A stretch of 64,000 nt of DNA, taken from an uncultured Trueperaceae bacterium (GTDB lineage: Bacteria; Deinococcota; Deinococci; Deinococcales; Trueperaceae). Under the pieces are notes generated by a model. The model did no database searches. It was not told the origin of the DNA and was given only the letters and a program-made list of their open reading frames with translations. Location: the NCBI GenBank assembly GCA_963815215.1, contig CAWFFU010000004.1, forward strand, positions 96,001-160,000. Direction: 5' to 3'. Shown piece by piece: positions 38,844-49,562 of this stretch. The position numbers and the translations under genes are program-made. Numbering within the stretch: position 1 is the stretch's first letter; each line of letters opens with the position of its first letter.

Positions 38844-39728
38844 ATGGCGAAGCGCGACGCAGACCCCGATTCCGGGGCGCAGGCCGACGCGGGTGCCTCG
38901 ACCGATGCGGTCGACGAGGTGGCTGTGGCGCGAACGCAGCAGCGCGCGCGAACGCGCTTCGCGGCGTCGGCACAGGCGTACGTGACGAGCGTCTCGCACG
39001 CCAGGGGGGACGAGCTGCCGCGTCTGGTGGAGGCGGCTCGCTCGCGCCTGGGTGACCTTGCGGGGCGCCGCGCGCTCGACGTCGCCACCGGCGGCGGGCA
39101 CACGGCACGAACCCTGGCGGTGGCCGGCGCGCATGTCACCGTCTCCGACCTGACGCCCGAGATGCTGGCCGCAGCCGAGGCGCACCTGCGCGAGGCCGTG
39201 CCGGCCGCGGCGTTGACGTTCGTGGTGGCCGCAGCCGAAGCGCTGCCGTTCGACGACGGTGCGTTCGAGGTCGTGAGCTGCCGCATCGCGGCGCACCACT
39301 TCGGCGACCCGCGTGCCTTCCTGGCCGAGGCGCGGCGCGTGCTGGCGCCGGGCGGGGTGCTCCTGCTGGTGGACAACGTGGCGCCGGAGAACCCGCGGCT
39401 GGGCGAGGCGATGAACGAGGTCGAGCGCCTGCGCGACCCGAGCCACGTCGAGGCCTACCGGGTGTCCACCTGGACGGGTTGGCTGGGGGAGGCGGGGTTG
39501 GAGCCGTACCTGCTCGAGCGCTTCTGGCGCGTCAAGCCGCTGGCCTCGTGGCTGCGGCGGGCCGACACCTCACCGGAGAGCGAGACGGCGCTGCGGGCGT
39601 TGCTCGAGGGTGCCGACGAGGCGGTGCGGCGCTACCTGATCGCGCCGGACGCCGGGGCGGGCAGGGCGTCCGAGCCCGAGCTCCGGCACGAGGTCATGCT
39701 GCTGGCCGCGTCCGCGGGACCGGCCTGA
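38844..39728 (+). CDS. Class I SAM-dependent methyltransferase
   Basis: YVTS..HA.G, LDVATGGGH, AEALPF.D..F, RIAAHHF and RDPSH. Confidence 0.9.
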   Translation: MAKRDADPDSGAQADAGASTDAVDEVAVARTQQRARTRFAASAQAYVTSVSHARGDELPRLVEAARSRLGDLAGRRALDVATGGGHTARTLAVAGAHVTVSDLTPEMLAAAEAHLREAVPAAALTFVVAAAEALPFDDGAFEVVSCRIAAHHFGDPRAFLAEARRVLAPGGVLLLVDNVAPENPRLGEAMNEVERLRDPSHVEAYRVSTWTGWLGEAGLEPYLLERFWRVKPLASWLRRADTSPESETALRALLEGADEAVRRYLIAPDAGAGRASEPELRHEVMLLAASAGPA

Positions 39729-39829
39729 GCCGACGTCGCCGCGACGGCGCGCTGTGTCCGGGCGTACCGAACGACGGAAACGCGCCCCCCAGCCTGAGCC
39801 GGGGAGCGCGCCGGTAACCCGCCAGAATC

Positions 39830-39946
39830 TCGAGGGAACCCTGAGGTTCCTTCTGAACTCAAGAAGGCGGTCCTGAGTTACCCTCGACGGGTACCTCCAC
39901 TGGTCTCTTTACTCGTATGTATTAGGACCACCTCCTTTCCGTGGTG
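39830..39946 (-). ncRNA. Candidate structured small RNA / micro-ORF transcript
   Basis: TTTAAA-17-TATATT promoter. AAAGGAGGTGGTCCT is complementary to the downstream AGGACCGCCTTCTT. Two 3' hairpins. No long ORF. Confidence 0.45.
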
Positions 39947-39970
39947 CGTCCAATATACTCCTGGCTCGAA

Positions 39971-40020
39971 GCAATTTAAAGCGGTGTTGCTGCAATTTAA
40001 CGTGGTGTTGGGAGCAATTA
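39971..40020. promoter_or_regulatory. Three direct repeats with 21-22 bp period (probable regulator sites)
   Basis: GCAATTTAAAGCGGTGTTGCT / GCAATTTAACGTGGTGTTGGGA / GCAATTA. Confidence 0.55.
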
Positions 40021-40130
40021 GACAGGGATCTAGAGATTAGGGGTGCTCGGGTTCTGGACTTCCCAGACGCTGAGGGTCGTGCGTTCGCCCTGGTTGTGGT
40101 TGCTGGATGTCGCTTCAGGTCCAAGGAGGT

Positions 40131-40155
40131 CAGGTTCGAGTCCTGCGCGTCCCAC
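40131..40155 (+). other. tRNA 3'-end-like fragment (T-arm + acceptor strand), possible att remnant
   Basis: CAGG-TTCGAGT-CCTG-C-GCGTCCC-AC. No intact D-arm or anticodon arm upstream. Confidence 0.45.
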
Positions 40156-40457
40156 TTCAGCTTGGCGGAGCATCCTTGAGGGCACGGTCTAGGACTTGCG
40201 CATTGCGCGTCGAGCGCGACATGACGTCTTCGGATCGCTCGACAGGGCGCGGGTGACTGCGTCCTTCATTAGGTCTAGAACTCGCTCGTGAACCGTCCTG
40301 AGTTCTGTGGACGCCTTCATGTTTCGCAAGCTGCCCAAGCACGTCCAACCGAGATCCGGGCCGTACCGTCGGGTGCGGCCCCCTTGGTTGCCGGAGTGGT
40401 GTGCCGGAGGTGGGTCCTAGGGATCGAGTCTGCCCCGCGCGGGGCGATCGGGGAGCG

Positions 40458-41561
40458 TCACTGGTAGTACGTGATGGTTCGGGTCGTGACGGAGCCGTAG
40501 TCGCTGCTGAGCTCGTGATGGACCGGGTCCTGCAGTTGGCACGTGCGGGTCTGCCAGTTGCCGTACGTGTCGCGATCGCCGTAGGTGCAGCGTTGGGTGG
40601 GGGTGCCGTTGCTGTCGAACTGCGTGCTGCGAAGCGGCTGGTAGACGTTGTAGCTGAAGGTCGTCCGTTGGCCCAAGGTAGCGCTTCCCGGAAGGTAGCT
40701 ACGGGTGGAGGTCTCGCGTCCGTCGCGATCGTAGTGGGTAACCGAGCTCAGGATGCCATCGCGGAGAGTGGTCACGGACTCGGGGGTGCCGCCCGGGTAG
40801 TAGGCGTGCAGCTCGACGATGTGGGAGGTGCCGTAGTAGGCGGGATGGGCTTCGCCGGGCACGGGCCAGTTGCCGTTGGCGGGCTGAAGGTAGTCCATGC
40901 GGAGCAGAAGCGGCGGGTGGCCCGGGCGGTCGTGGCTGTAGGCGAAGGTCTGGGTCCGTTCGCCGTCCCTGCCCGGGTAGGTGACGTGACGCTGGGTGAG
41001 CAGGCCATGGTCATCGTAGGTGAGGGTGGCGATCGCGCGAGGTCGCGACGGCTGGCGGTGCGGATCGTACCAGCCTGGAAAGCGTTCGACGCGTAGCGGT
41101 TTGCCCTCGTCGTCGAGGGTCGTGATGTCGTAGTACGAGGGTGGGCTGCCGCCGGCGTTGTCGAACTCGAGCAGCCGGTGGTGGGCGTCGAGCTTCTTGA
41201 TGGTGACGCCGGTCTCGTAGGACGCCAGGCGGTGCGTGTAACCGAGGTAGATCCCATGGTCGTAGTGGTAGGTGTATGCCACGACTTCGTTGCCGTCGCG
41301 GTCGCGGTACGTGACCTGCGTGAGCCGACCTCCTGCATCGAAGTGGAGGGTGAAGAGCTGGACGTGGCGGCTGGAGTCCATCCCCTGGGTAGTCAGCGTC
41401 TTGACGGGGCCTAGGAGGGCGACGTCGGTGGTGGTGAGGGCAGAACGTTGGTCGAAGGCCAGCGCGCCCTGCCAGGCCAGCGGATCCGTGATCCCGTGCT
41501 GCGCCGCCGCATAGGCGAGCACCAGCGCGCCAGCGAAGGGAAGGAGACGGAACATGGACAT
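40458..41561 (-). CDS. Secreted YD/RHS-like repeat protein
   Basis: Signal peptide, LLGPVKTL, and repeated FD..GR, YD..G.L, YDRDGR and DTYGNW. Ends TRTITYY. Confidence 0.7.
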   Translation of the reverse strand: MSMFRLLPFAGALVLAYAAAQHGITDPLAWQGALAFDQRSALTTTDVALLGPVKTLTTQGMDSSRHVQLFTLHFDAGGRLTQVTYRDRDGNEVVAYTYHYDHGIYLGYTHRLASYETGVTIKKLDAHHRLLEFDNAGGSPPSYYDITTLDDEGKPLRVERFPGWYDPHRQPSRPRAIATLTYDDHGLLTQRHVTYPGRDGERTQTFAYSHDRPGHPPLLLRMDYLQPANGNWPVPGEAHPAYYGTSHIVELHAYYPGGTPESVTTLRDGILSSVTHYDRDGRETSTRSYLPGSATLGQRTTFSYNVYQPLRSTQFDSNGTPTQRCTYGDRDTYGNWQTRTCQLQDPVHHELSSDYGSVTTRTITYYQ

Positions 41562-41628
41562 GATGGCCTTTCGGTGGGTGGCGCCCCGGCAGGAGCGCCA
41601 CCCACATGCGGTGACGAAGTGGGCTCCG

Positions 41629-43341
41629 CTACTGACAGACTAGACCGATGGTGTTGAAGGTGATCGTCTCGGCCGCCTGAGGGTCTGAGTTGCTTGTCGC
41701 CAGGACGGTAGTCGTGGCATGGGTCTGGGTCTCGCCGCTGTTGTAGCAGGGTAGTGTCGGTGCCGTGAAGTGCACGATGTCCACGGTTGGCGCCGACCAA
41801 GCGGTTCCGTTGGGTATGTGTTCGCGCGTCGATGAAAGCGCGCCTTGCCCGGAGGTCACTTCAAGGGTGGCTCCTTGCCCGCTGAAGTCGTTGCTGGTGA
41901 TGCTGATGTCCTTTGTCTGCCCCGGGCCGACAGAGTAAGAGTACTCCAGGTTCCCCACGCTGCAGCCTCCGGCATCGCCCTCGCACGCCAACAAGGTCAA
42001 GGTGTTCAGGTGGCTGTCGATGTCGTACGTGACGTCGGGTTGAGCGATGCTGTGGACGCGCAGGGTGAAAGGGGCGCCGTCCGCGTAGCCCGCCGTGGGC
42101 GCAGTGTAGTAGGTTGCTGGCTCGCCGCCTGGCCCCTGCCCGATGCTGATGGTTCCGGGTCCTGTGGCGATCGCCCACCCCACGCTTTCATCGAGGGTCG
42201 AGTCGTACACGTTGGTCACGCGCCCATCGAGCAGCAGCGTCTGGCCCGGATTCACAACAGATGCGGACCCCGACACCGGTTGTCCGTCCACGTAGGTTGT
42301 GGCGTTTCCACTGACCTCCAATTGGTAGCAGAGCACGGTGATGGGCACGGGCCCGAGCGGGCTGTCCGGATCATCACTCGTGATCGTCACCGTCCCACTC
42401 GTGTCCCAATCCACCGCGCTTGGACAGGTACCCGCCAGGGGAATCTCGGTACCTCGGCCTGGGTCTACGGCTCCGGACGTCGGGGCGTTCGTGCTGAGCC
42501 CTACGGCGCCTCCGTTGACGGACACCTCGTAGTGCAGCGTCGCGTCGCCGTTGTTCTCGAGCCCGAGCATGGTGCTGAAGGGCCGTCCCATGTTGCTGAC
42601 GGCATTGCGTTGGTAGTAGATGGCTGCATGCGGACCACAGTGCACGCCGAAGTAGGACGGCGGAAGGTCCGGAATCCCCATCGGGAAGATGGGCACATCA
42701 TTGCACGGCGGCGGCGTGTGCACGTCGGGCCGCAGAATGTCGATGGTCACCGCCGCTGCTCCATCTGGGTTGTCCGCCGCTGAGCTGCCGTCCTCGATGC
42801 TGCCACCGGAATCGAGCCAGTACGCATCACCGGGATACAGCTTGGGGCAGAGCACTTGGAAGGCGTACGACAGGCTGTCGGTGCGAGGATCATCGAAGAT
42901 GTTGATCGGGGTTGCGGAGCCCTGGTTCGCGCCGGCCTTCAGGTTGTTGATGAGAGAGTAGGGGAGCTTGGTGCCGACAGTGGGGTCGGTATCGTTCTTG
43001 CCGAGATTGAACTGAACGGACAGAACGTTGTCGCTCGAGTTCTGCGCGAAGCCGACCACGTGCCCGCTGCCATCAACACCGCCAAGAGAGATGCTAGACC
43101 GGTAGAGTTGGGGGTCCGGCGTGTAGTTCGGGTCGGCCGCGGCGTGGCTGCCGTCGGTGATGGCGGTGGCGAAGCCGATCACGTGGGGTGCGGGGGTGTC
43201 GCTGAGAGCGAGGACGATGGCGTCGCTGCCTTCCAGGATCCGTAGGTGGGTCTCGGGTGTGGGTGGGTTGGGCCAACCCTCGAAGAATCCCTGGAGCTGG
43301 TCCGGTCGGATGTGAGCGGCGGAGTGACGGTAGGTGACCAT
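41629..43341 (-). pseudogene. In-frame chimera: N-terminal half of a GNAT acetyltransferase fused to the C-terminal part of an Ig-like-domain surface protein
   Basis: SD GAGGAG, then MVTY...GFFEGWPNPP.PETHLRIL.GS...VIGF.TAITDG. The GNAT stops before its acetyl-CoA motif. A Thr/Ser/Gly/Asp-rich Ig-like region follows (ENNGDATL.Y.V, GTVTITSDDPD). Confidence 0.65.
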
Positions 43342-43377
43342 GGTGGCTCCTCTCGTTCGGTTCGGCCATAATGCCGC

Positions 43378-44088
43378 ATGATCGAGGACCGATGGGGGGA
43401 TCAGGATGGGGTTCAGCTTCACTACGTCATCCAGCGGGGGGCCGCGGACCGGGTGCCTCTCGTGTACGTGCCGGGCAGCCTTGGAAGGGCGGAGGAGTTC
43501 CGGGCGGAGATGGGGCGTCTGGCTCCGCGCGCCACGCTCGCAGTGGACAAGCGGGGTGTGTTCGAGGGGGAAGATGCTCCGCAGCGCGGGTACGCGTTCG
43601 AGGATCGGGTCGCCGATCTCGAGGCCGTCCTTGCCGGCGCGGGCCTGGGCCCGGCATGCCTGATGGCGTTCTCGTTGGGGGTTCCGGTCGCCATCAGGTT
43701 TGCCGTGCGTCATCCGGATGAGGTGCGTGGATTGATCCTGCTGGACTACCCCGCTCGCTACCAGGCTAGAGACGATGCCTGGCTCGAGCGGGCGCTGCCG
43801 TTCGCCCGCGAGCGGGGGATCCCGGAGCGGGTGGTCCGCGCCATCTATCGCGAGTCCGCGCCAGTTGAGTTGTGGAGTGAGTTAGGAACCTTGAGCTGTC
43901 CCGTGCTGTTGGTGGTGGGCGGCAAGAGCCGGAGCGTGTCGGGCGCGGACCTCGAGCGCTACCGGGACGCGCTCCCGGACCTCCGGGTCGAGGTCTTCGA
44001 GGACGCCGGCCACGAGGTGTTCCGGCCGGACTACGAGCGCTTCATGCGGCTGGTCGAGGGGTTCCTTGCGGAGCTGGACGCGCTCTGA
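43378..44088 (+). CDS. Alpha/beta fold hydrolase
   Basis: VYVPG, VDKRG, nucleophile elbow AFSLG, VRGLILLD, PVLLV.G..S and DAGH. Leaderless CATAAT-5-ATG. Confidence 0.85.
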   Translation: MIEDRWGDQDGVQLHYVIQRGAADRVPLVYVPGSLGRAEEFRAEMGRLAPRATLAVDKRGVFEGEDAPQRGYAFEDRVADLEAVLAGAGLGPACLMAFSLGVPVAIRFAVRHPDEVRGLILLDYPARYQARDDAWLERALPFARERGIPERVVRAIYRESAPVELWSELGTLSCPVLLVVGGKSRSVSGADLERYRDALPDLRVEVFEDAGHEVFRPDYERFMRLVEGFLAELDAL

Positions 44089-44142
44089 GGGGCAGCCCGG
44101 CTTCACGGTCACGGCCGCCCGATCTCCTATGCTGGCTTGACC

Positions 44143-44853
44143 ATGGCTGATGGAGGTCGCGAGGACTGGGGCTTGCCCGACTATTGGCTTCCCCGACCCG
44201 GGACAAACGGCGCGGGTAAGCTGCGGGTCGCGCTTCGTAACGTCTTGGACGCGTACGTCCTGAACGGGACGGGTGGCTGGGTCCCGACACCGCTGCCGCG
44301 CCCTGCCTGGGTCTTCCTGACGTGGCTGGGTGAGGAGATGGGCCTGATGCTCCATGGGAGCGGTCATCCGGCGATCGAGTCGTTCACTCCCAGGGCGCCG
44401 AACGACAGGTCCCCGGATGCGTTCAGCAAGCAGCGTGCCGTCTTCGCGACCACCGACGGCATCTTCGCGATCTTCTACGCCATCCTCGACCGGAGGACGA
44501 AAGGGTTCAGCTTCCTCGACGCCGCCCTGCAGTTCGCGGACGCCAACGGCGGCTGGTCGCCGACGCACTACTACTTCTCCGTCTCGCAAGACGCTCCGCC
44601 AGCTCCCTGGCGGCCCGGCGCCGTGTACATCCTTCCGGCGGAGGGCTTCCGGCAGCAGCCGGCCTACCGCGTCGGCGACCGCATGGTGCTCGACCCGCAC
44701 TTCGCGCGCCAGGCGCCAGTGCGTCCCCTTGCGAAGCTGCGTGTGGAGCCCACGGACTTCCCGTTCCTCGGCCGCGTCGCGCGGCATGATCGCGAGCTCG
44801 TCGACGCAAGGTCCGTCGAAGAGCCGGTGGCCTTCCCCTGGCGTGAGCCCTGA
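44143..44853 (+). CDS. Hypothetical protein, possible ADP-ribosyltransferase (Arr-like) fold
   Basis: LHGS, AVFATT..I.A.FYA, GAVYILP.EGF and PVRPL. Confidence 0.55.
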   Translation: MADGGREDWGLPDYWLPRPGTNGAGKLRVALRNVLDAYVLNGTGGWVPTPLPRPAWVFLTWLGEEMGLMLHGSGHPAIESFTPRAPNDRSPDAFSKQRAVFATTDGIFAIFYAILDRRTKGFSFLDAALQFADANGGWSPTHYYFSVSQDAPPAPWRPGAVYILPAEGFRQQPAYRVGDRMVLDPHFARQAPVRPLAKLRVEPTDFPFLGRVARHDRELVDARSVEEPVAFPWREP

Positions 44854-44932
44854 TGACGATGGCTCCAGCGCGCGACAGCGCTGCGCGGATGGTGGCCGAA
44901 GCCTTGCCTACCACTGCTCCGAACTGTCGTGT

Positions 44933-45049
44933 CTACCTGATTGGCCGGCGTACACGGTGGGCACCAGGGCGACGATGATCTTGGACGACGTCAACCGCGT
45001 TGCCGACGATCCTGACGGGGCGTTGATGAAGGCAGCCGGCGCCCTCTGA
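44933..45049 (+). pseudogene. C-terminal remnant of a type-B carboxylesterase
   Basis: LPDWPAYT..TRATMILD....V.DDP, the typical COesterase C-terminus, with no upstream body. Confidence 0.6.
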
Positions 45050-45103
45050 GTCGGACCATGCAGCGCCGGGTTGCGGAGGCGCGGCCAGCGCTCATGACAA
45101 CGA

Positions 45104-45132
45104 AGCGGGCCGGCCCTCGTGGCCGGCCCGCT
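45104..45132. terminator. 12-bp hairpin between convergent genes
   Basis: AGCGGGCCGGCC-CTCGT-GGCCGGCCCGCT. Confidence 0.65.
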
Positions 45133-45152
45133 AGCGCGGGTGTGCGCGAAAC

Positions 45153-46610
45153 TCAGGGTCTGTATACGAGGTAGCGGTAGTTGTTCTCGTCGGCGACGAT
45201 CAACGCCTGGTCGGTGAGCAGGAACCCTGCCGGGTTGTCGAGCGTGCGCGCGGTCGGCGTGCCGGACGTGCCCGTCTGGGCGTCATCGTCGGAGGTGACG
45301 TGCGTGAAGTCGCTCTGCCCAAGGACGTGCACGGCACTGGCGCCGTTCGTCGTGGGGATGCCGTCGAAGATCAGGACGCGGTTGTTGTTCGCATCGGCGA
45401 CGAAGAGCTGGTTCCCGTTGCTCGCGAGGAAGTATGGACCGTCCAACCCGGCTGCGCCGGCGGCGGCAATGTTCCCGGTCATGGTCGACTGACCGACGAC
45501 CACGTCGGCGGGCTGGAGGTCGCTGGTGGGGAAGGTGTTCCAGATGAGGACGCGGTTGCTGTTCCTGTCGACCACGATGAGGCGGGTGCCGTCCGACCAG
45601 ACGTCGCTCGGGTAGTCCAGCGTCGCGGCAGTGACGGTGGGGCTGTCGGCTCCGACGCCGGCGTTCTTGTAGCAGCTGGTGAGGCTGCTCTGACCGAGCA
45701 CGAGGTCGGCTGCGGCGCCGTTGCTAGTGGGGATGCTGTTGTAGATCAGTACCCGGTTGTTGTGGCTATCGGCGACGATGAGCTTGCCGTCCACGGTGAA
45801 GATGCTCTCGGGCTCATCGAGCCCCGTGGCGGTGCACGCAGTGCTGCTACTGCCGAAGCCGGGCTGCCCGACCACCAGATCGGCGGGAACCTGTGTGCTG
45901 GTCGGGATCGTGTTCCAGATGAGCACACGACTGTTGCTGTATCCGTCCACGAGAAGTTTGCCGCCCGCGCTCACCACGGTTTGCGCCCCGGCCATGCCAT
46001 CGGCGGTGGAGCTGGTGGCGGACGAGGTCATGTCGGGCTGGCCGAGCACGAAGTCGGCGCTGGCGCCGTTGCTGGTCGGGATGCCGCTCGAGAAGCCGAG
46101 CACCCGGTCGAAGCCGTAGTCAGGGAGGTACAGCACGCCGTTGACGAGTGCCGGGTTGCCGTAGGGGTGCCCTACCGACGTCGCGGTCGCCGAGGGGAGC
46201 TGGGCGTTGGTGGACATGTCGGGTTGTCCGATGACCACCGAGGCGTTCTGGAAGTCGGTGAAGGCGAGGAAGGGGTAGACCAGGGTGAGGGTGCTGGTCG
46301 AGGTGCCTGCGCTCGAGGTGGCGGTGACGACGATGCTGTTGCTGCCGTCGGCCAGCGTGAGCGGCGCGCTGAAGCTACTGCTGGTGTGGGTCGTGCCGCT
46401 GACGGCGGTGCCGTTGAGCTTCACGCTCACGGCCGTGGCGGGTCCGCCGCTGAGGGTGCCGGCCAGCGTCAGGCTGCGGCTCCCCACGACGCGTTGACCG
46501 TCGGTGTTAGACGTCACGCTGATGGACACTTTGCTCGATGTCGAGCAGCCGGCAAGGACGAGGGCAAGAGCGAGCAGAGAAGCATAGGCGAGTAGCTTCG
46601 GTCGCATCAT
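45153..46610 (-). CDS. Lipoprotein with Ig-like domain and NHL-repeat beta-propeller
   Basis: Lipobox LAGC and Ig-like L.DG.N.I.VTAT. About 6 repeats of (V/L)GQ.D/S...L..P...L.VAD..NNRVLI(W/F/Y). TACAAT promoter and GGAGG SD. Confidence 0.85.
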   Translation of the reverse strand: MMRPKLLAYASLLALALVLAGCSTSSKVSISVTSNTDGQRVVGSRSLTLAGTLSGGPATAVSVKLNGTAVSGTTHTSSSFSAPLTLADGSNSIVVTATSSAGTSTSTLTLVYPFLAFTDFQNASVVIGQPDMSTNAQLPSATATSVGHPYGNPALVNGVLYLPDYGFDRVLGFSSGIPTSNGASADFVLGQPDMTSSATSSTADGMAGAQTVVSAGGKLLVDGYSNSRVLIWNTIPTSTQVPADLVVGQPGFGSSSTACTATGLDEPESIFTVDGKLIVADSHNNRVLIYNSIPTSNGAAADLVLGQSSLTSCYKNAGVGADSPTVTAATLDYPSDVWSDGTRLIVVDRNSNRVLIWNTFPTSDLQPADVVVGQSTMTGNIAAAGAAGLDGPYFLASNGNQLFVADANNNRVLIFDGIPTTNGASAVHVLGQSDFTHVTSDDDAQTGTSGTPTARTLDNPAGFLLTDQALIVADENNYRYLVYRP

Positions 46611-46878
46611 GTTTTGCCTCCAGAGCGATTGTAGTCGGCATGCCAGCCTCCTCAGGGACGCGGCTCACAAGACCGAGGAGCACTCGCTTTCGACGTGCTT
46701 GAGTCCGTAGATCTTCCCTCTGAATTCGCGATCGAGCAAGGTCGCGGCCCGGGCCGTTCGCGGTCCGTTCGCCTCCGGGGGTCGCGGGCCGTAGGTCTTC
46801 CGGGTGGGCTTGCGCCAGCGAAGCCGTCACCGCGTAGGGTCGCGCCTCGAGGCGAGAACCTCGGCGCCCGCAGCGGGC

Positions 46879-48108
46879 TCAGTAGAGCAGCGCCAGCGCC
46901 GAAGGATCCTCCACCAGCTCCAGCAGCCGGTCGGCCCACGCCGCCGCCGCGCCGAGCTCGACGCGGGAGCGGTCGAACGCCAGGCGCAGGGTCAGCGCGG
47001 TACGGACCGCTGGAGCCCCGTCGACGGCGAGGACGCGTTCGGCCAGCCTGCCGGCGACCAGGCTCACGACGCCTTCGTGCGGCGCGCTCTCGCCGGACAG
47101 CTCGGTGCGAGCGCGGGTGAGGTCGAGCAGCGAGAGTGCGGGAACGGAATCCGTCTCCGCCGACCCGGCATCCCGCGCGGCAGCAGCCTCCCGCGCACTC
47201 ACGACGGCGTTCAGGCCGACCGAGCCGGCGTCTTCGAGGCGCGCGTCGCTCAGGGAGCCGTCGGCCACGCGGCGGTATCGCAGGCCGTGCGGCGTACCCG
47301 CGTGGGTTTCGACCAGAGGGTTGCGCGCCCACACGGCGGCCAGGAACCGTGCCAGCAGGTCGCCGACGTCGACCCCTGCGGTGTCGCCCGCCCCGCCTGT
47401 CGGCGTCCGGCGTCGCGCCCAGGCCACCACGGCCAGGAGCGGCGCGGCGTCGACCTCCCGGACGAACTCCGTCCAGCTCCCTGGCGCGAAGGGAGCGCCG
47501 AGGTAGGTCGGGGAGGGACGGGGAGCCCGCTCCGCCGCCCGCAGCACGTCCGCGGCGAGCACGGCACCCTCCGGCCCGCTCCCCTCGAGCACGGCCACAT
47601 CCAGTCCGCGCTCCGACGCCAGCCGACGCGCCTTCGGGGACGCCGGGGTGAGGCGGTACGGACCTGGGCGGTCGCTGGCGGCAGGGAGAGCGGTTCGTGG
47701 CGCGGCGGCCATCGATGGGCTGCCGGTGGTGGGCGCGCCCGTGGTGGTGGGCGCGCCCGTTCCGGGCTGCACGGGGCCGTTGGCCCCCGGTCGCGGGGTC
47801 CCGGCCGGTGCCCGCTCGGGCGTGGCAGTGTCCGGCTTCGGGGGGCGCCCGGAGGTATCCGCAGCTTCCCCTGCTGCGAGGATCACGGCGATGACGCTCC
47901 CCACCTTCACCTCGTCGCCGGCTGTGGCCGTGACGCGGGCGAGGGTGCCGGAGGCGGGCGCGTCGAGCTCCATGGTGGCCTTGTCGGTCTCGACCTCCAT
48001 GATGGGCTCGCCCTGCTCGACCTGCTCCCCCTCCTGCTTGAGCCAGGAGAGGAGCACGGCGGTGTCCTGGTTCATCCCCAGGACCGGCATGATGACGTCC
48101 TTGGCCAC
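46879..48108 (-). CDS. Dihydrolipoamide acyltransferase (E2)-like protein with degenerate catalytic domain
   Basis: Lipoyl domain (VETDKATMEL) and E3/E1-binding domain (ASPKARRLA...GSGPEG.V...DV). The catalytic DHRxxDG is replaced by FDRSRVELG. Confidence 0.8.
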   Translation of the reverse strand: MAKDVIMPVLGMNQDTAVLLSWLKQEGEQVEQGEPIMEVETDKATMELDAPASGTLARVTATAGDEVKVGSVIAVILAAGEAADTSGRPPKPDTATPERAPAGTPRPGANGPVQPGTGAPTTTGAPTTGSPSMAAAPRTALPAASDRPGPYRLTPASPKARRLASERGLDVAVLEGSGPEGAVLAADVLRAAERAPRPSPTYLGAPFAPGSWTEFVREVDAAPLLAVVAWARRRTPTGGAGDTAGVDVGDLLARFLAAVWARNPLVETHAGTPHGLRYRRVADGSLSDARLEDAGSVGLNAVVSAREAAAARDAGSAETDSVPALSLLDLTRARTELSGESAPHEGVVSLVAGRLAERVLAVDGAPAVRTALTLRLAFDRSRVELGAAAAWADRLLELVEDPSALALLY

Positions 48109-48135
48109 GGCTCTCCTTCGTCGCTCGCGCGCAGG

Positions 48136-49519
48136 CTAGTGCTTGCCGTCCGGACCGACCGCGCCCGTGTCGGCGGCGGCCGGCGCGCCCGGCACGCCGG
48201 GCTTGCCGTCGGGGAAGATGCGGCCGTTGTTGTAGTTCGACTCGGTCTCGCGCACGCCGGGGAGATCGCCGAGCGCGGTGTAGTACTTGGGCCCGGCGAC
48301 CATCAGCTCTTCGGCGGGGAATCGGCTGATGACCTCGCAGCCGTCCTTGGTCACCACCAGCTCTTCCTCGATGCGGGCGGCCGACCAGCCGTCGCTGGCG
48401 GGCCAGAAGGTCTCGAGCGCGAACACCATGCCCTCTTCGATGACCTCGGGGTGGTCGAGGCTGAACAGCCGGCTGAAGATGGGCTTCTCCCAGATGTTGA
48501 GGCCGAGCCCGTGGCCGTACTGCAGGGCGAAGGCGAGCTCCTCGTTGGGGAAGCCGAACTCCTGGGCCTTGGGCCAGATCGACACCACTTCGGCGGTGGT
48601 GACGCCGGGCTTGATGAGGCTGATGGCGTGGTCGAGCAGGTCGCGGCACTTGGCGTAGGCGTCGACCTGGGCCTGGCTGGCGCTGCCGACGGCGAAGGTG
48701 CGGTAGTAGCAGGTGCGGTAGCCCATGTAGCTGTGCAGGATGTCGAAGTAGGCGGGGTCGCCGGGACGCAGCATGCGGTCGGACGCGACGTGGGGGTGGG
48801 GGTTGCAGCGTTCGCCGCTGATGGCGTTGACGCCCTCGACCATCTCGCTGCCGTGGCGGTAGAGGAAGTCGCTCACCAGGCCCGACCAGATCGTTCTCGC
48901 GCACGCCAGGGCGGAGCTTCTCGTAGAGCTGGTCGTAGGCGGCGTCGACCATGGAGGAGGCGTGGGTGAGCAGCATGATCTCGTCGACCGTCTTGATCTT
49001 GCGGGCCTCGAGCATGAGCTGCTGGCCGTCGATGACGGTGATGCCCGCCTTCTGCAGCGCGAACAGCACCGGCGGCTCGACGATGTCGATGGCGACCGGG
49101 TCGCCGGCCAGGCCGCGCTGGTCGAGCTCGTCCTTGATCCAGCGCGCCACTTGCTCGGCGCGGCCCATCTCGGGGCTGATGGTGCCGCGCAGCATCGACA
49201 CGCCGGGTCGCGAGCGCTTCTCGCCGTCGAGCCAGGGGGCGTAGAGCTGGTGGTGCTTGGCCGCCGAGCCGAAGTCCCACAGGATGGGCTCGTCGTTCTG
49301 CGGCAGCAGGGTGAAGCGCGCCACCTTGTCCTGCGCCCAGGTACCGATGTGGGTGGCCGTGATGTAGCGGACGTTGTTCATGTCGAAGCACAGCAGGGCT
49401 CCGGCCTCGGACTCCGCCAGCACCTTCTTGATGCGTGCCAGTCGCTCGTTGCGGAGGCGCTCGAAGTTGACGCGCTCCTCCCAGTCGACCGCCATGACGC
49501 CGTGGGTATGAATGGCCAT
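48136..49519 (-). pseudogene. M24 (Xaa-Pro peptidase / creatinase-fold) enzyme with a 1-nt frameshift at 48881-48883
   Basis: N-half (DWEERV.F.RLR, ARKIKT.DEI, PGVREND) and C-half (NPHPH, FDI, YRTCYYRTF, GHGLGL, FALET, RIEE) are in different frames. Deleting one G of GTCGGGCCTG restores ...DLVGLVSDF... (460 aa). Confidence 0.8.
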
Positions 49520-49562
49520 CAGGATTCCGCCTCCCTGGTACGGGGTGGGGTGCGCTTCCGCG

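Follow-up and report, generated by a model that had tools for sequence, protein, structure and literature searches.

A conserved small RNA gene of the Trueperaceae with full complementarity to the 16S rRNA tail and a non-AUG mini-frame, a candidate translation-initiation switch

The non-AUG start codon of Escherichia coli infC is a classical target of discrimination by initiation factor 3 (IF3), and pairing between the 5′ and 3′ untranslated regions (UTRs) of a transcript is exemplified by icaR. Leader-peptide attenuators of the trp type and upstream open reading frame (uORF) switches rely on a short frame whose occupancy by ribosomes remodels alternative helices. Type I toxin messenger RNAs (mRNAs) of the hok kind and dual-function small RNAs (sRNAs) consist of a small RNA with an open reading frame (ORF) and a Shine-Dalgarno (SD) sequence which pairing with a remote anti-SD-like segment can lock. 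For Staphylococcus aureus, a published report describes extended SD motifs that direct non-canonical starts, including the AUA of infC, as well as a short translated uORF whose ribosome occupancy remodels alternative RNA helices (PMC13009471). In Bacillus, binding of the 30S subunit to the STAB-SD of cry3A, a GAAAGGAGG-type sequence near the 5′ end of the RNA that is complementary to the 3′ end of 16S ribosomal RNA (rRNA), blocks 5′-to-3′ decay by RNase J1 (PMC4113751). The present report concerns an element of ~170 nucleotides (nt), located at 39945-39776 on the minus strand of a 64,000-nt stretch of DNA from an uncultured Trueperaceae bacterium (assembly GCA_963815215.1, contig CAWFFU010000004.1, positions 96,001 to 160,000; hereafter the window, whose numbering is used throughout), which can be compared with each of these systems.

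No description of this RNA was found in the literature, subscription journals lying outside the scope of the search, and comparison of genomes indicates that it represents a new family of RNAs in the Deinococcales which, within the literature searched, combines known principles in an undescribed way. It appears to be vertically conserved in the Trueperaceae and in at least one sister family of the order. The explanation that we favour, with slightly better than even confidence, is that it is an independently transcribed RNA gene which would act through the ribosome and not through a conserved peptide, as a translated switch that senses initiation. STAB-SD belongs to the long 5′ UTR of a protein gene, where it directs no initiation, whereas the element has, on comparative evidence, a conserved start codon and a frame at normal spacing (open in 75/75 variants) and no protein gene downstream. 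Unlike attenuators, it has neither antiterminator complementarity nor a conserved regulated gene. It also departs from type I toxin mRNAs, since its peptides (e.g., IHTSKETSGGTRRG and LLHIKLVGGGARRG) are hydrophilic, variable and only 12-15 residues long, and since it is a single syntenic copy that is neither mobile nor repeated; the earlier suggestion of a type-I toxin-antitoxin-like mRNA, made in a sequence-only reading of this DNA, is not supported, on account of the peptide.

A 301-nt query finds a single copy of the element in its own genome. By blastn, 19 of the 24 further Trueperaceae genomes compared carry it, against none of 16 that represent four different families of the order, with matches that start at query positions 114-116, that is at 39945-39947, and extend to the terminator. 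A 24-nt degenerate pattern taken from the conserved core of the ORF retrieved 84 loci from 185,579 species genomes, 83 of which hold the entire element; the named records that bear homologs are almost all Trueperaceae, Truepera or Deinococcota. Together with the 16S end, they speak for the Trueperaceae and against an actinobacterial origin, which the 72% content of guanine and cytosine had suggested. One pattern match (L053) was set aside as a chance occurrence in coding DNA. A covariance model, R1, was built from 84 unique sequences and run on 151 Deinococcales genomes. It matches the window copy over 39774-39945 (144.6 bits, E = 8.6e-46), and it detects the element in 35 of 36 genomes of the Trueperaceae (family f1), in 18 of 19 genomes of a sister family (f5) at full length and with E values of 1e-10 to 1e-15, and in one of 36 genomes, representing one genus, of a third family (f2; E = 1e-23). 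Weak R1 matches in families f3 and f4 (E 3.5e-6 to 9e-3) were all treated as false on the basis of two inspected loci, L125 and L126, in which R1 had matched coding DNA or an ordinary SD site. The element is matched by no Rfam 15 family at gathering thresholds over the whole window, and a permissive Rfam scan of 39300-40700 returned at best CC2171 (19.6 bits vs. a threshold of 75, E = 0.14) and sbrA (16.5 vs. 45). The sequence-only reading had named a lack of homologs that keep the SD/anti-SD pairing and a decayed 5′ end of a longer gene among the results that would speak against it; homologs were found, and they do not have the character of a decayed gene.

The limits of conservation coincide with those of a transcription unit. 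A promoter-like site on the minus strand (-35 TTTAAA at 39980-39975, 17-nt spacer, -10 TATATT at 39957-39952), present as first read, is the sole match of a promoter scan in 39600-40200 (9/12 matches; 0.0 expected in shuffles). Six bases separate the -10 box from ACCACGGAAAGGAGGTGGTCC, which begins at 39945, and A39945 is the approximate predicted +1, inferred and not mapped. The conserved stretch opens ~7 nt past the -10 box and stops with a covarying terminator; in a 19-genome alignment a TAnnnT box keeps a constant distance from the first conserved base while its flanks diverge. The terminator (39776-39812, minus strand) consists of a hairpin rich in guanine and cytosine (GC) at 39812-39779, with 15 base pairs (bp) per arm, followed by UUUCC. 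In the window copy this hairpin is not called by a strict terminator scan because its T tail is short; a hairpin with a T-rich tail is found by a simple scan in 79 of 88 unique homologs, four of those picks being partial or wrong. The length of ~115 nt first proposed is revised to ~170 nt, because the RNA would run on to this hairpin and its UUUCC. These comparisons support a stand-alone small transcription unit, conserved from predicted +1 to covarying terminator in more than 100 genomes, in keeping with the stand-alone RNA postulated from the window alone.

The most distinctive part of the predicted RNA is its 5′-proximal SD. The 16S rRNA of the same genome ends in ...GGTTGGATCACCTCCTTTCT, and the extended SD GGAAAGGAGGUGGUCC (39925-39940, minus strand) is the complement of its last 16 nt, with all of which it pairs contiguously, two G-U pairs included, at -27.8 kcal/mol. 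This pairing occupies positions 6-21 of the predicted RNA. The sequence-only reading had recognized a complementarity of 15 positions in GAAAGGAGGTGGTCC (39939-39925); these stand, and G39940 extends the pairing to 16, with two G-U pairs. The 3.3-Mb assembly has 12,291 GGAGG sites, both strands counted; 16 contiguous pairs are reached only by the element and by the antisense of the 16S gene end, the runners-up having 14 pairs (2 sites) and 13 pairs (8 sites). Substitutions in the SD across the 84 sequences, read by eye, are confined to A/G or C/U changes, all of which keep the pairing with 16S rRNA. Such a duplex would be expected to recruit the 30S subunit tightly, and it invites the explanation, raised as a 30S decoy in the sequence-only reading too, that the RNA is a decoy or a cap for the 16S tail, on which the duplex would hold an idle 30S subunit, the weak start codon blocking commitment, and thereby buffer free 30S or shield the 16S 3′ end. 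The element does carry the longest anti-SD complement in the genome, its duplex with 16S rRNA is stronger than the internal pairing with an SD-complementary segment (-22.2 kcal/mol, see below), and the avoidance of AUG fits this idea; however, the gene is single-copy and a pure decoy would need neither an open frame nor the P2 helices, so that we regard it as quite improbable. As a separate observation, two loci of the sister family (L120 and L121) carry GGAUCGCCUCC after the ORF core, one base off the 16S tail GGAUCACCUCC, that is, a near-exact copy of the anti-SD within the RNA.

Downstream of the SD, a mini-ORF spans 39922-39878 on the minus strand. As described in the sequence-only reading, its AUA (39922-39920) lies 8 nt after GGAGG and opens a frame of 14 sense codons, closed by UAA at 39880-39878, with the potential peptide (M/I)HTSKETSGGTRRG. 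In 75 unique variants the start codon is ATT (39), ATC (19) or ATA (17), never ATG, GTG or TTG, and this ATH codon lies 5-9 nt after GGAGG, at 8 nt in 61 variants. CTG takes its place at the same 8-nt spacing in nine of 11 loci of the sister family and in the single f2 locus, with a frame open for 13-15 codons. In-frame stops in the variable codons occur in 0/75 unique variants vs. 46/75 and 41/75 in the other two frames, and composition-shuffled variable regions stay open with a mean probability of 0.68 each. The ORF length ranges from 12 to 15 codons, and indels of 3 or 6 nt, or of 1 nt made good in the spacer, preserve the frame. An in-frame GUG within the SD was considered as the start and is excluded by the spacing variants and by five variants with an in-frame TAG directly before ATH. 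Comparison thus supports a mini-ORF under selection to stay open, and the non-AUG micro-ORF first proposed from one sequence is borne out to that extent.

The same initiation design recurs in infC of the family. This gene lies elsewhere in the genome of the window, on contig C3, and was located in 24 family genomes as well. In all 24 Trueperaceae examined (loci L129, 1468-1500, and L130-L152), an in-frame ATA (19), ATC (4) or ATT (1) stands 6-10 nt beyond GGAGG, the spacing being 8 nt in 18, and leads into the conserved codons (A/S)(R/K)(E/D)(L/M)K (ARELK); the V/I codon further on is not conserved as a start, and automatic annotation would probably miss the apparent ATH start. The extended SD of infC in the Trueperaceae reads UUGGAGGUGRAGUYC and offers ~8-10 nt of complementarity to 16S rRNA vs. 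16 nt in the element. GGAGG(UG), a spacing of ~8 nt and AUA, AUC or AUU are therefore shared by the element (75/75 variants) and infC (24/24 genomes), whereas the element encodes neither IF3 nor any protein domain, its 12- to 15-codon frame standing on an orphan RNA with its own terminator. Because the initiation site shares the design of infC, initiation on the element is probably gated by IF3, although repression of the kind exerted at infC would here be argued by analogy with E. coli infC.

Two explanations that assign translation another role bear on the mini-ORF. According to the first, the element is a non-coding structured sRNA that binds a protein or pairs in trans, the SD-like 5′ end being a stabilizer of the STAB-SD type or a structural strand and the frame incidental. 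Nucleotides at synonymous positions are invariant across genera and the peptide is variable, as a non-coding RNA would have it. CU-rich segments serve as seeds in Gram-positive sRNAs, and a segment of that kind, CCGCCUCC, is present here as a possible seed, although it is not universal. Work on STAB-SD further shows that an RNA can be stabilized by 30S bound to an SD-like sequence at its 5′ end, with no initiation directed from there (PMC4113751). An incidental frame is, however, hard to reconcile with the absence of in-frame stops and the frame-preserving indels, with a near-cognate start at 5-9 nt from GGAGG throughout and with an infC of the same family that has the same architecture, and we hold this explanation to be unlikely while giving it appreciable weight. 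According to the second, the product is the peptide of 12-15 residues ending in (S/G)GG(A/T)R-x-G, and the RNA structure tunes its synthesis. The conserved frame fits this idea, as does the retention of GG(A/T)R-x-G from the Trueperaceae to the sister family with synonymous changes of CGA to CGG and of GGG to GGC. On the other hand, the first 6-8 residues vary freely and the penultimate residue may be R, L, Q, P or H (as read by eye), within the family the third positions of codons do not vary while the flanks have reached saturation, the frame read in L120 and L121 is another one, and the only recurrent part of the peptide, (S/G)GG(A/T)R-x-G, is encoded by codons that coincide exactly with the helix strands P1, P2a and P2b. 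From these patterns the peptide itself does not appear to be the constraint, and a micropeptide gene is improbable.

The helices in question emerge from consensus folds obtained with RNAalifold on 18 and on 84 sequences, with pairs counted on a MAFFT alignment; on the 84 sequences RNAalifold yields P1, P2a and the terminator. P1 (39897-39944, minus strand) joins CCAC 39944-39941 to GUGG 39900-39897 and UGGUC 39930-39926 to GACCA 39905-39901, leaving the SD core in an internal loop and the start codon with the variable codons in the apical loop. Its columns are paired in 97-100% of cells and almost invariant within the family, and a few both-side changes appear in an alignment that includes the sister family and was fitted to the structure. 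P2a is the universal long-range helix: GGURCCCGYC, that is ORF codons 10-13 (GGUACCCGUC, 39886-39895 in the window), pairs with GGCGGG(U)AACC or GGCGGGUAACC just before the terminator, represented in the window by GGCGGGUUACC (GGCGGGTTACC, 39823-39813) directly 5′ of the terminator. The 3′ half of the frame, together with the stop codon, is one strand of a covarying long-range helix. Over the MAFFT alignment 88.3% of cells are paired vs. 82.7% when shuffled and 32-50% when the partners are slid. Both-side changes occur in 11/11 pairs of the terminator, and the P2a column pair 64/153 comprises C-G 33 times, U-G 41 times and U-A 10 times, never C-A. Among the outgroup sequences examined a P2a partner was found in 11/11, with compensation visible as CCUGU:ACAGG in L123 vs. 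CCCGU:ACGGG in L124. The 3′ partner of the ORF end changes as well, from CCCUC to AGCCC or AGUCCC, the ORF end GGGGCU of the sister family pairing with either of these two in place of GAGGG:CCCUC (hand reading).

Because the middle of the RNA aligns poorly, an alignment-free test was used in which the duplex energy of cognate strands is compared with that of strands swapped between genomes. Cognate strands pair better in the terminator (z = -27), in the GGAACC-type hairpin with its flanks (-10.6), between the ORF end GAGGGUAAC and the 3′ strand of the variable hairpin GUUCCCUC (-5.8) and in P2a (-5.0, 0/2000 permutations), while two control pairings were flat (+1.0 and +0.4). The variable hairpin region (39832-39860, minus strand) contains GGAACC 39850-39845 facing GGUUCC 39840-39835, flanked by CUUGAG/CUCGAG, and its 3′ strand GUUCCCUC can pair alternatively with the ORF end GAGGGUAAC. 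Two candidate helices were rejected: that between the post-ORF and pre-terminator segments, which is weak (-11.3 kcal/mol) and in which cognate strands pair no better than swapped ones (z = +0.3), and the inner rod helix CCGCCUC:GAGnCGG, which is not significant (z = -1.3). For the inner region, the dot-brackets, read by eye, show a rod-like fold as the minimum free energy (MFE) structure of 33 out of 42 sequences.

A short ORF shares its sequence with one strand of alternative helices, which an intrinsic terminator follows directly. This arrangement recalls a leader-peptide transcription attenuator, in which translation of the mini-ORF would decide whether the terminator forms and thereby control a downstream gene. 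The pre-terminator segment GGCGGGUAACC, which translation would free, nevertheless pairs less well with the 5′ arm of the terminator when cognate (-8.1 kcal/mol) than when permuted (-8.7 kcal/mol; z = +4.2), which leaves no antiterminator, and the downstream gene is not conserved and is convergent in the window, L008, L014, L015 and L018. For want of both an antiterminator and a conserved downstream gene, attenuation is disfavoured, and we judge it very improbable. As a further observation on the same part of the RNA, L019, L025, L035 and L065, from a low-GC genus of the Trueperaceae, and L111-L121 of the sister family have an insertion of 30-120 nt that lies past the ORF end and ahead of the pre-terminator strand; the RNAs in question measure 200-290 nt, which makes the domain enclosed by P2 an expandable module.

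A second long-range pairing could hide the SD. Just after the stop codon, the segment AGGACCGCCUUCUU (AGGACCGCCTTCTT, 39874-39861, minus strand) mimics the anti-SD and can form 13 bp with the SD. In the window copy the pairing of the SD with AGGACCGCCTTCTT (13 bp, -22.2 kcal/mol) is part of the MFE fold, the MFE of the whole RNA being -86.7 kcal/mol (z = -5.2 vs. 200 shuffles). Over the 84 sequences the SD pairs with this mimic at a mean of -17.8 kcal/mol, shuffled partners reaching -10.5, and z lies below -2 in 67% of the sequences. The locked SD read from the window is thus found in the predicted MFE fold of the window copy, but not as a universal feature, since it stands clearly above shuffled controls in about two-thirds of the 84 sequences and is strong in 3/11 of the outgroup. 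Both alternative pairings noted in the same reading, CCTTCT/AGAAGG and GGAACC/GGTTCC, are present. Its proposal of a conformational switch is likewise upheld in part: competing pairings exist, but the main universal long-range helix is P2a, which had gone unnoticed. The predicted MFE sequesters the SD in 34/84 sequences and contains P2a in 22/84, whereas with the SD held single-stranded P2a enters the predicted fold of 54/84; the penalty for imposing P2a has a median of 2.2 kcal/mol and amounts to 6.5 kcal/mol in the window copy. In the folding model, the predicted conformers are close in energy.

Taken as a translated switch, the RNA would work as follows. Its 5′-proximal 16-nt SD would capture the 3′ tail of 16S rRNA, and initiation, probably IF3-gated, would take place at a weak start codon (AUA, AUU or AUC, and CUG in the sister family) 8 nt downstream. 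The initiating ribosome would then read 12-15 codons and unzip P1, P2a and P2b, the latter two composed of the second half of the ORF, its stop codon and segments that precede the terminator. In many lineages the post-ORF anti-SD mimic would compete with the ribosome for the SD and render the RNA bistable. The RNA may in this manner report or exploit the status of translation initiation, such as free 30S or IF3, and the SD may double as a protective ribosome-binding site at the 5′ end, as in STAB-SD.

Several points weigh against this explanation. The conserved frame is broken in L120 and L121, where, on a hand reading, the CUG frame runs for 24 codons in another register; the fixed position of the stop codon is therefore not universal. 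The synonymous replacement of the last Arg and Gly codons between families (CGA GGG to CGG GGC) is equally what one would expect of a conserved peptide. P1 and most of P2a are near-invariant within the family, so that classical covariation is thin (both-side change in 1/10 P2a pairs in alignment A2), and the permutation z values are inflated because related sequences were treated as independent. Pairing of the SD with its mimic is weak in some clades (-7 to -13 kcal/mol) and strong in three of the 11 sequences that the outgroup check covers, the low-GC Trueperaceae loci L019 and L025 being left out of it. As for RNA data, only two sediment metatranscriptome runs, both of one study, contain short contigs, 151 and 139 nt long, from a close relative, with 2-3 differences, over 39821-39949 and 39821-39919; they establish neither a transcript nor its ends or level, DNA carry-over is possible, and one contig extends 21 letters beyond the predicted +1. 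A further matching piece from metatranscriptome runs is unrelated to the element, and the word shares of the runs are small.

In a more specific form of ribosome-directed action, which we put forward as an unlikely proposal, the RNA would both sense ribosome status and act on it, by direct RNA-RNA pairing with the entire single-stranded 3′ tail of 16S rRNA. Free 30S would dock through the 16-bp duplex and be kept uncommitted by IF3, because the start codon is never AUG; docking would flip the RNA from the SD-sequestered to the P1/P2 form and so free the CU-rich, anti-SD-like strand. If so, the RNA could be a homeostat of the pool of free 30S and IF3, a cap for idle 16S 3′ ends or a competitor in trans for other SDs, and it would represent a new class of ribosome-binding regulatory RNA.

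The surroundings of the element differ from one genome to another. The next supported gene downstream in the window is a convergent S-adenosylmethionine (SAM)-methyltransferase (38844-39728, plus strand), itself preceded by BioY, and no supported gene follows the element on the minus strand, in agreement with the sequence-only reading. In the five loci in which a convergent downstream gene was examined, this gene encodes a methyltransferase (window, L008), BioY (L014, L015) or an aminotransferase (L018); more generally the downstream gene differs between loci (GGDEF, 4HBT, unknowns) and is often convergent. When neighbours were compared with Pfam, the element was divergent from a gene for an iron-sulfur (Fe-S)/CCG membrane protein of ~700 amino acids (aa) in nine of 16 loci. 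This ancestral neighbour was not found in the window (Pfam, 11 ORFs between 32.8-35.8 kb and 52.7-63.8 kb) and is lost from the vicinity of the element in the genus of the window. On the whole the element looks like an old, vertically inherited intergenic gene and not like a mobile or repeated locus. Two ORFs that overlap it, one of 71 aa (39909-40124, no Pfam family) and one of 76 aa on the minus strand (39632-39862), were rejected as the gene in question, given that conservation begins only at 39945.

GC content falls from ~75% left of 39830 to ~65% between 40000 and 49500. The lower-GC block, at approximately 40000-49520 (64-68% vs. 70-76% around it), holds five large minus-strand ORFs of 367, 694, 301, 485 and 955 aa. 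NHL repeats and immunoglobulin (Ig)-like domains occur in the one of 485 aa, and four are without a Pfam family; the block may be an acquired cluster of surface-protein genes inserted beside the sRNA gene. That the element is the end or attachment (att) site of a mobile element at the GC drop was considered and rejected: the window has no transfer RNA gene and the element is kept independently of the block, which is therefore merely a neighbour. Upstream, a direct repeat composed of TTAAATTGC, 11 nt and TTTAAATTGC lies at 39971-40000 (minus strand) and overlaps the -35 region. The same repeat, of the TYAAATTGC type, is also found upstream of the element in three genomes of the same genus (L002, L003, L005), not in other genera, and may be an operator for a genus-specific regulator. 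Elsewhere in the window, a full-length flavin mononucleotide (FMN) riboswitch (RF00050, 5631-5788, minus strand, 104.7 bits) is the only Rfam match.

To our knowledge, few regulatory RNAs have been described in the Deinococcota, and the element adds to this phylum a well-defined, order-level RNA family, with more than 100 genomes, a clear promoter and terminator and the covariance model R1. It unites rare features, namely complementarity to the full 16S 3′ tail, an obligatory non-AUG start (AUH or CUG, according to family) and a mini-frame whose codons are strands of the main helices, and we know of no earlier description of these three together. If the mini-frame only serves to unzip the RNA, the element would be a clean natural example of translation as a motor of RNA remodelling outside attenuation. 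Because the element copies the initiation design of infC, it would provide a second read-out, this one protein-free, of IF3 and of start-codon discrimination. The monitoring of initiation fidelity or 30S availability by a small RNA thereby becomes directly testable in cultivable Truepera, and in vitro with Thermus-type components.

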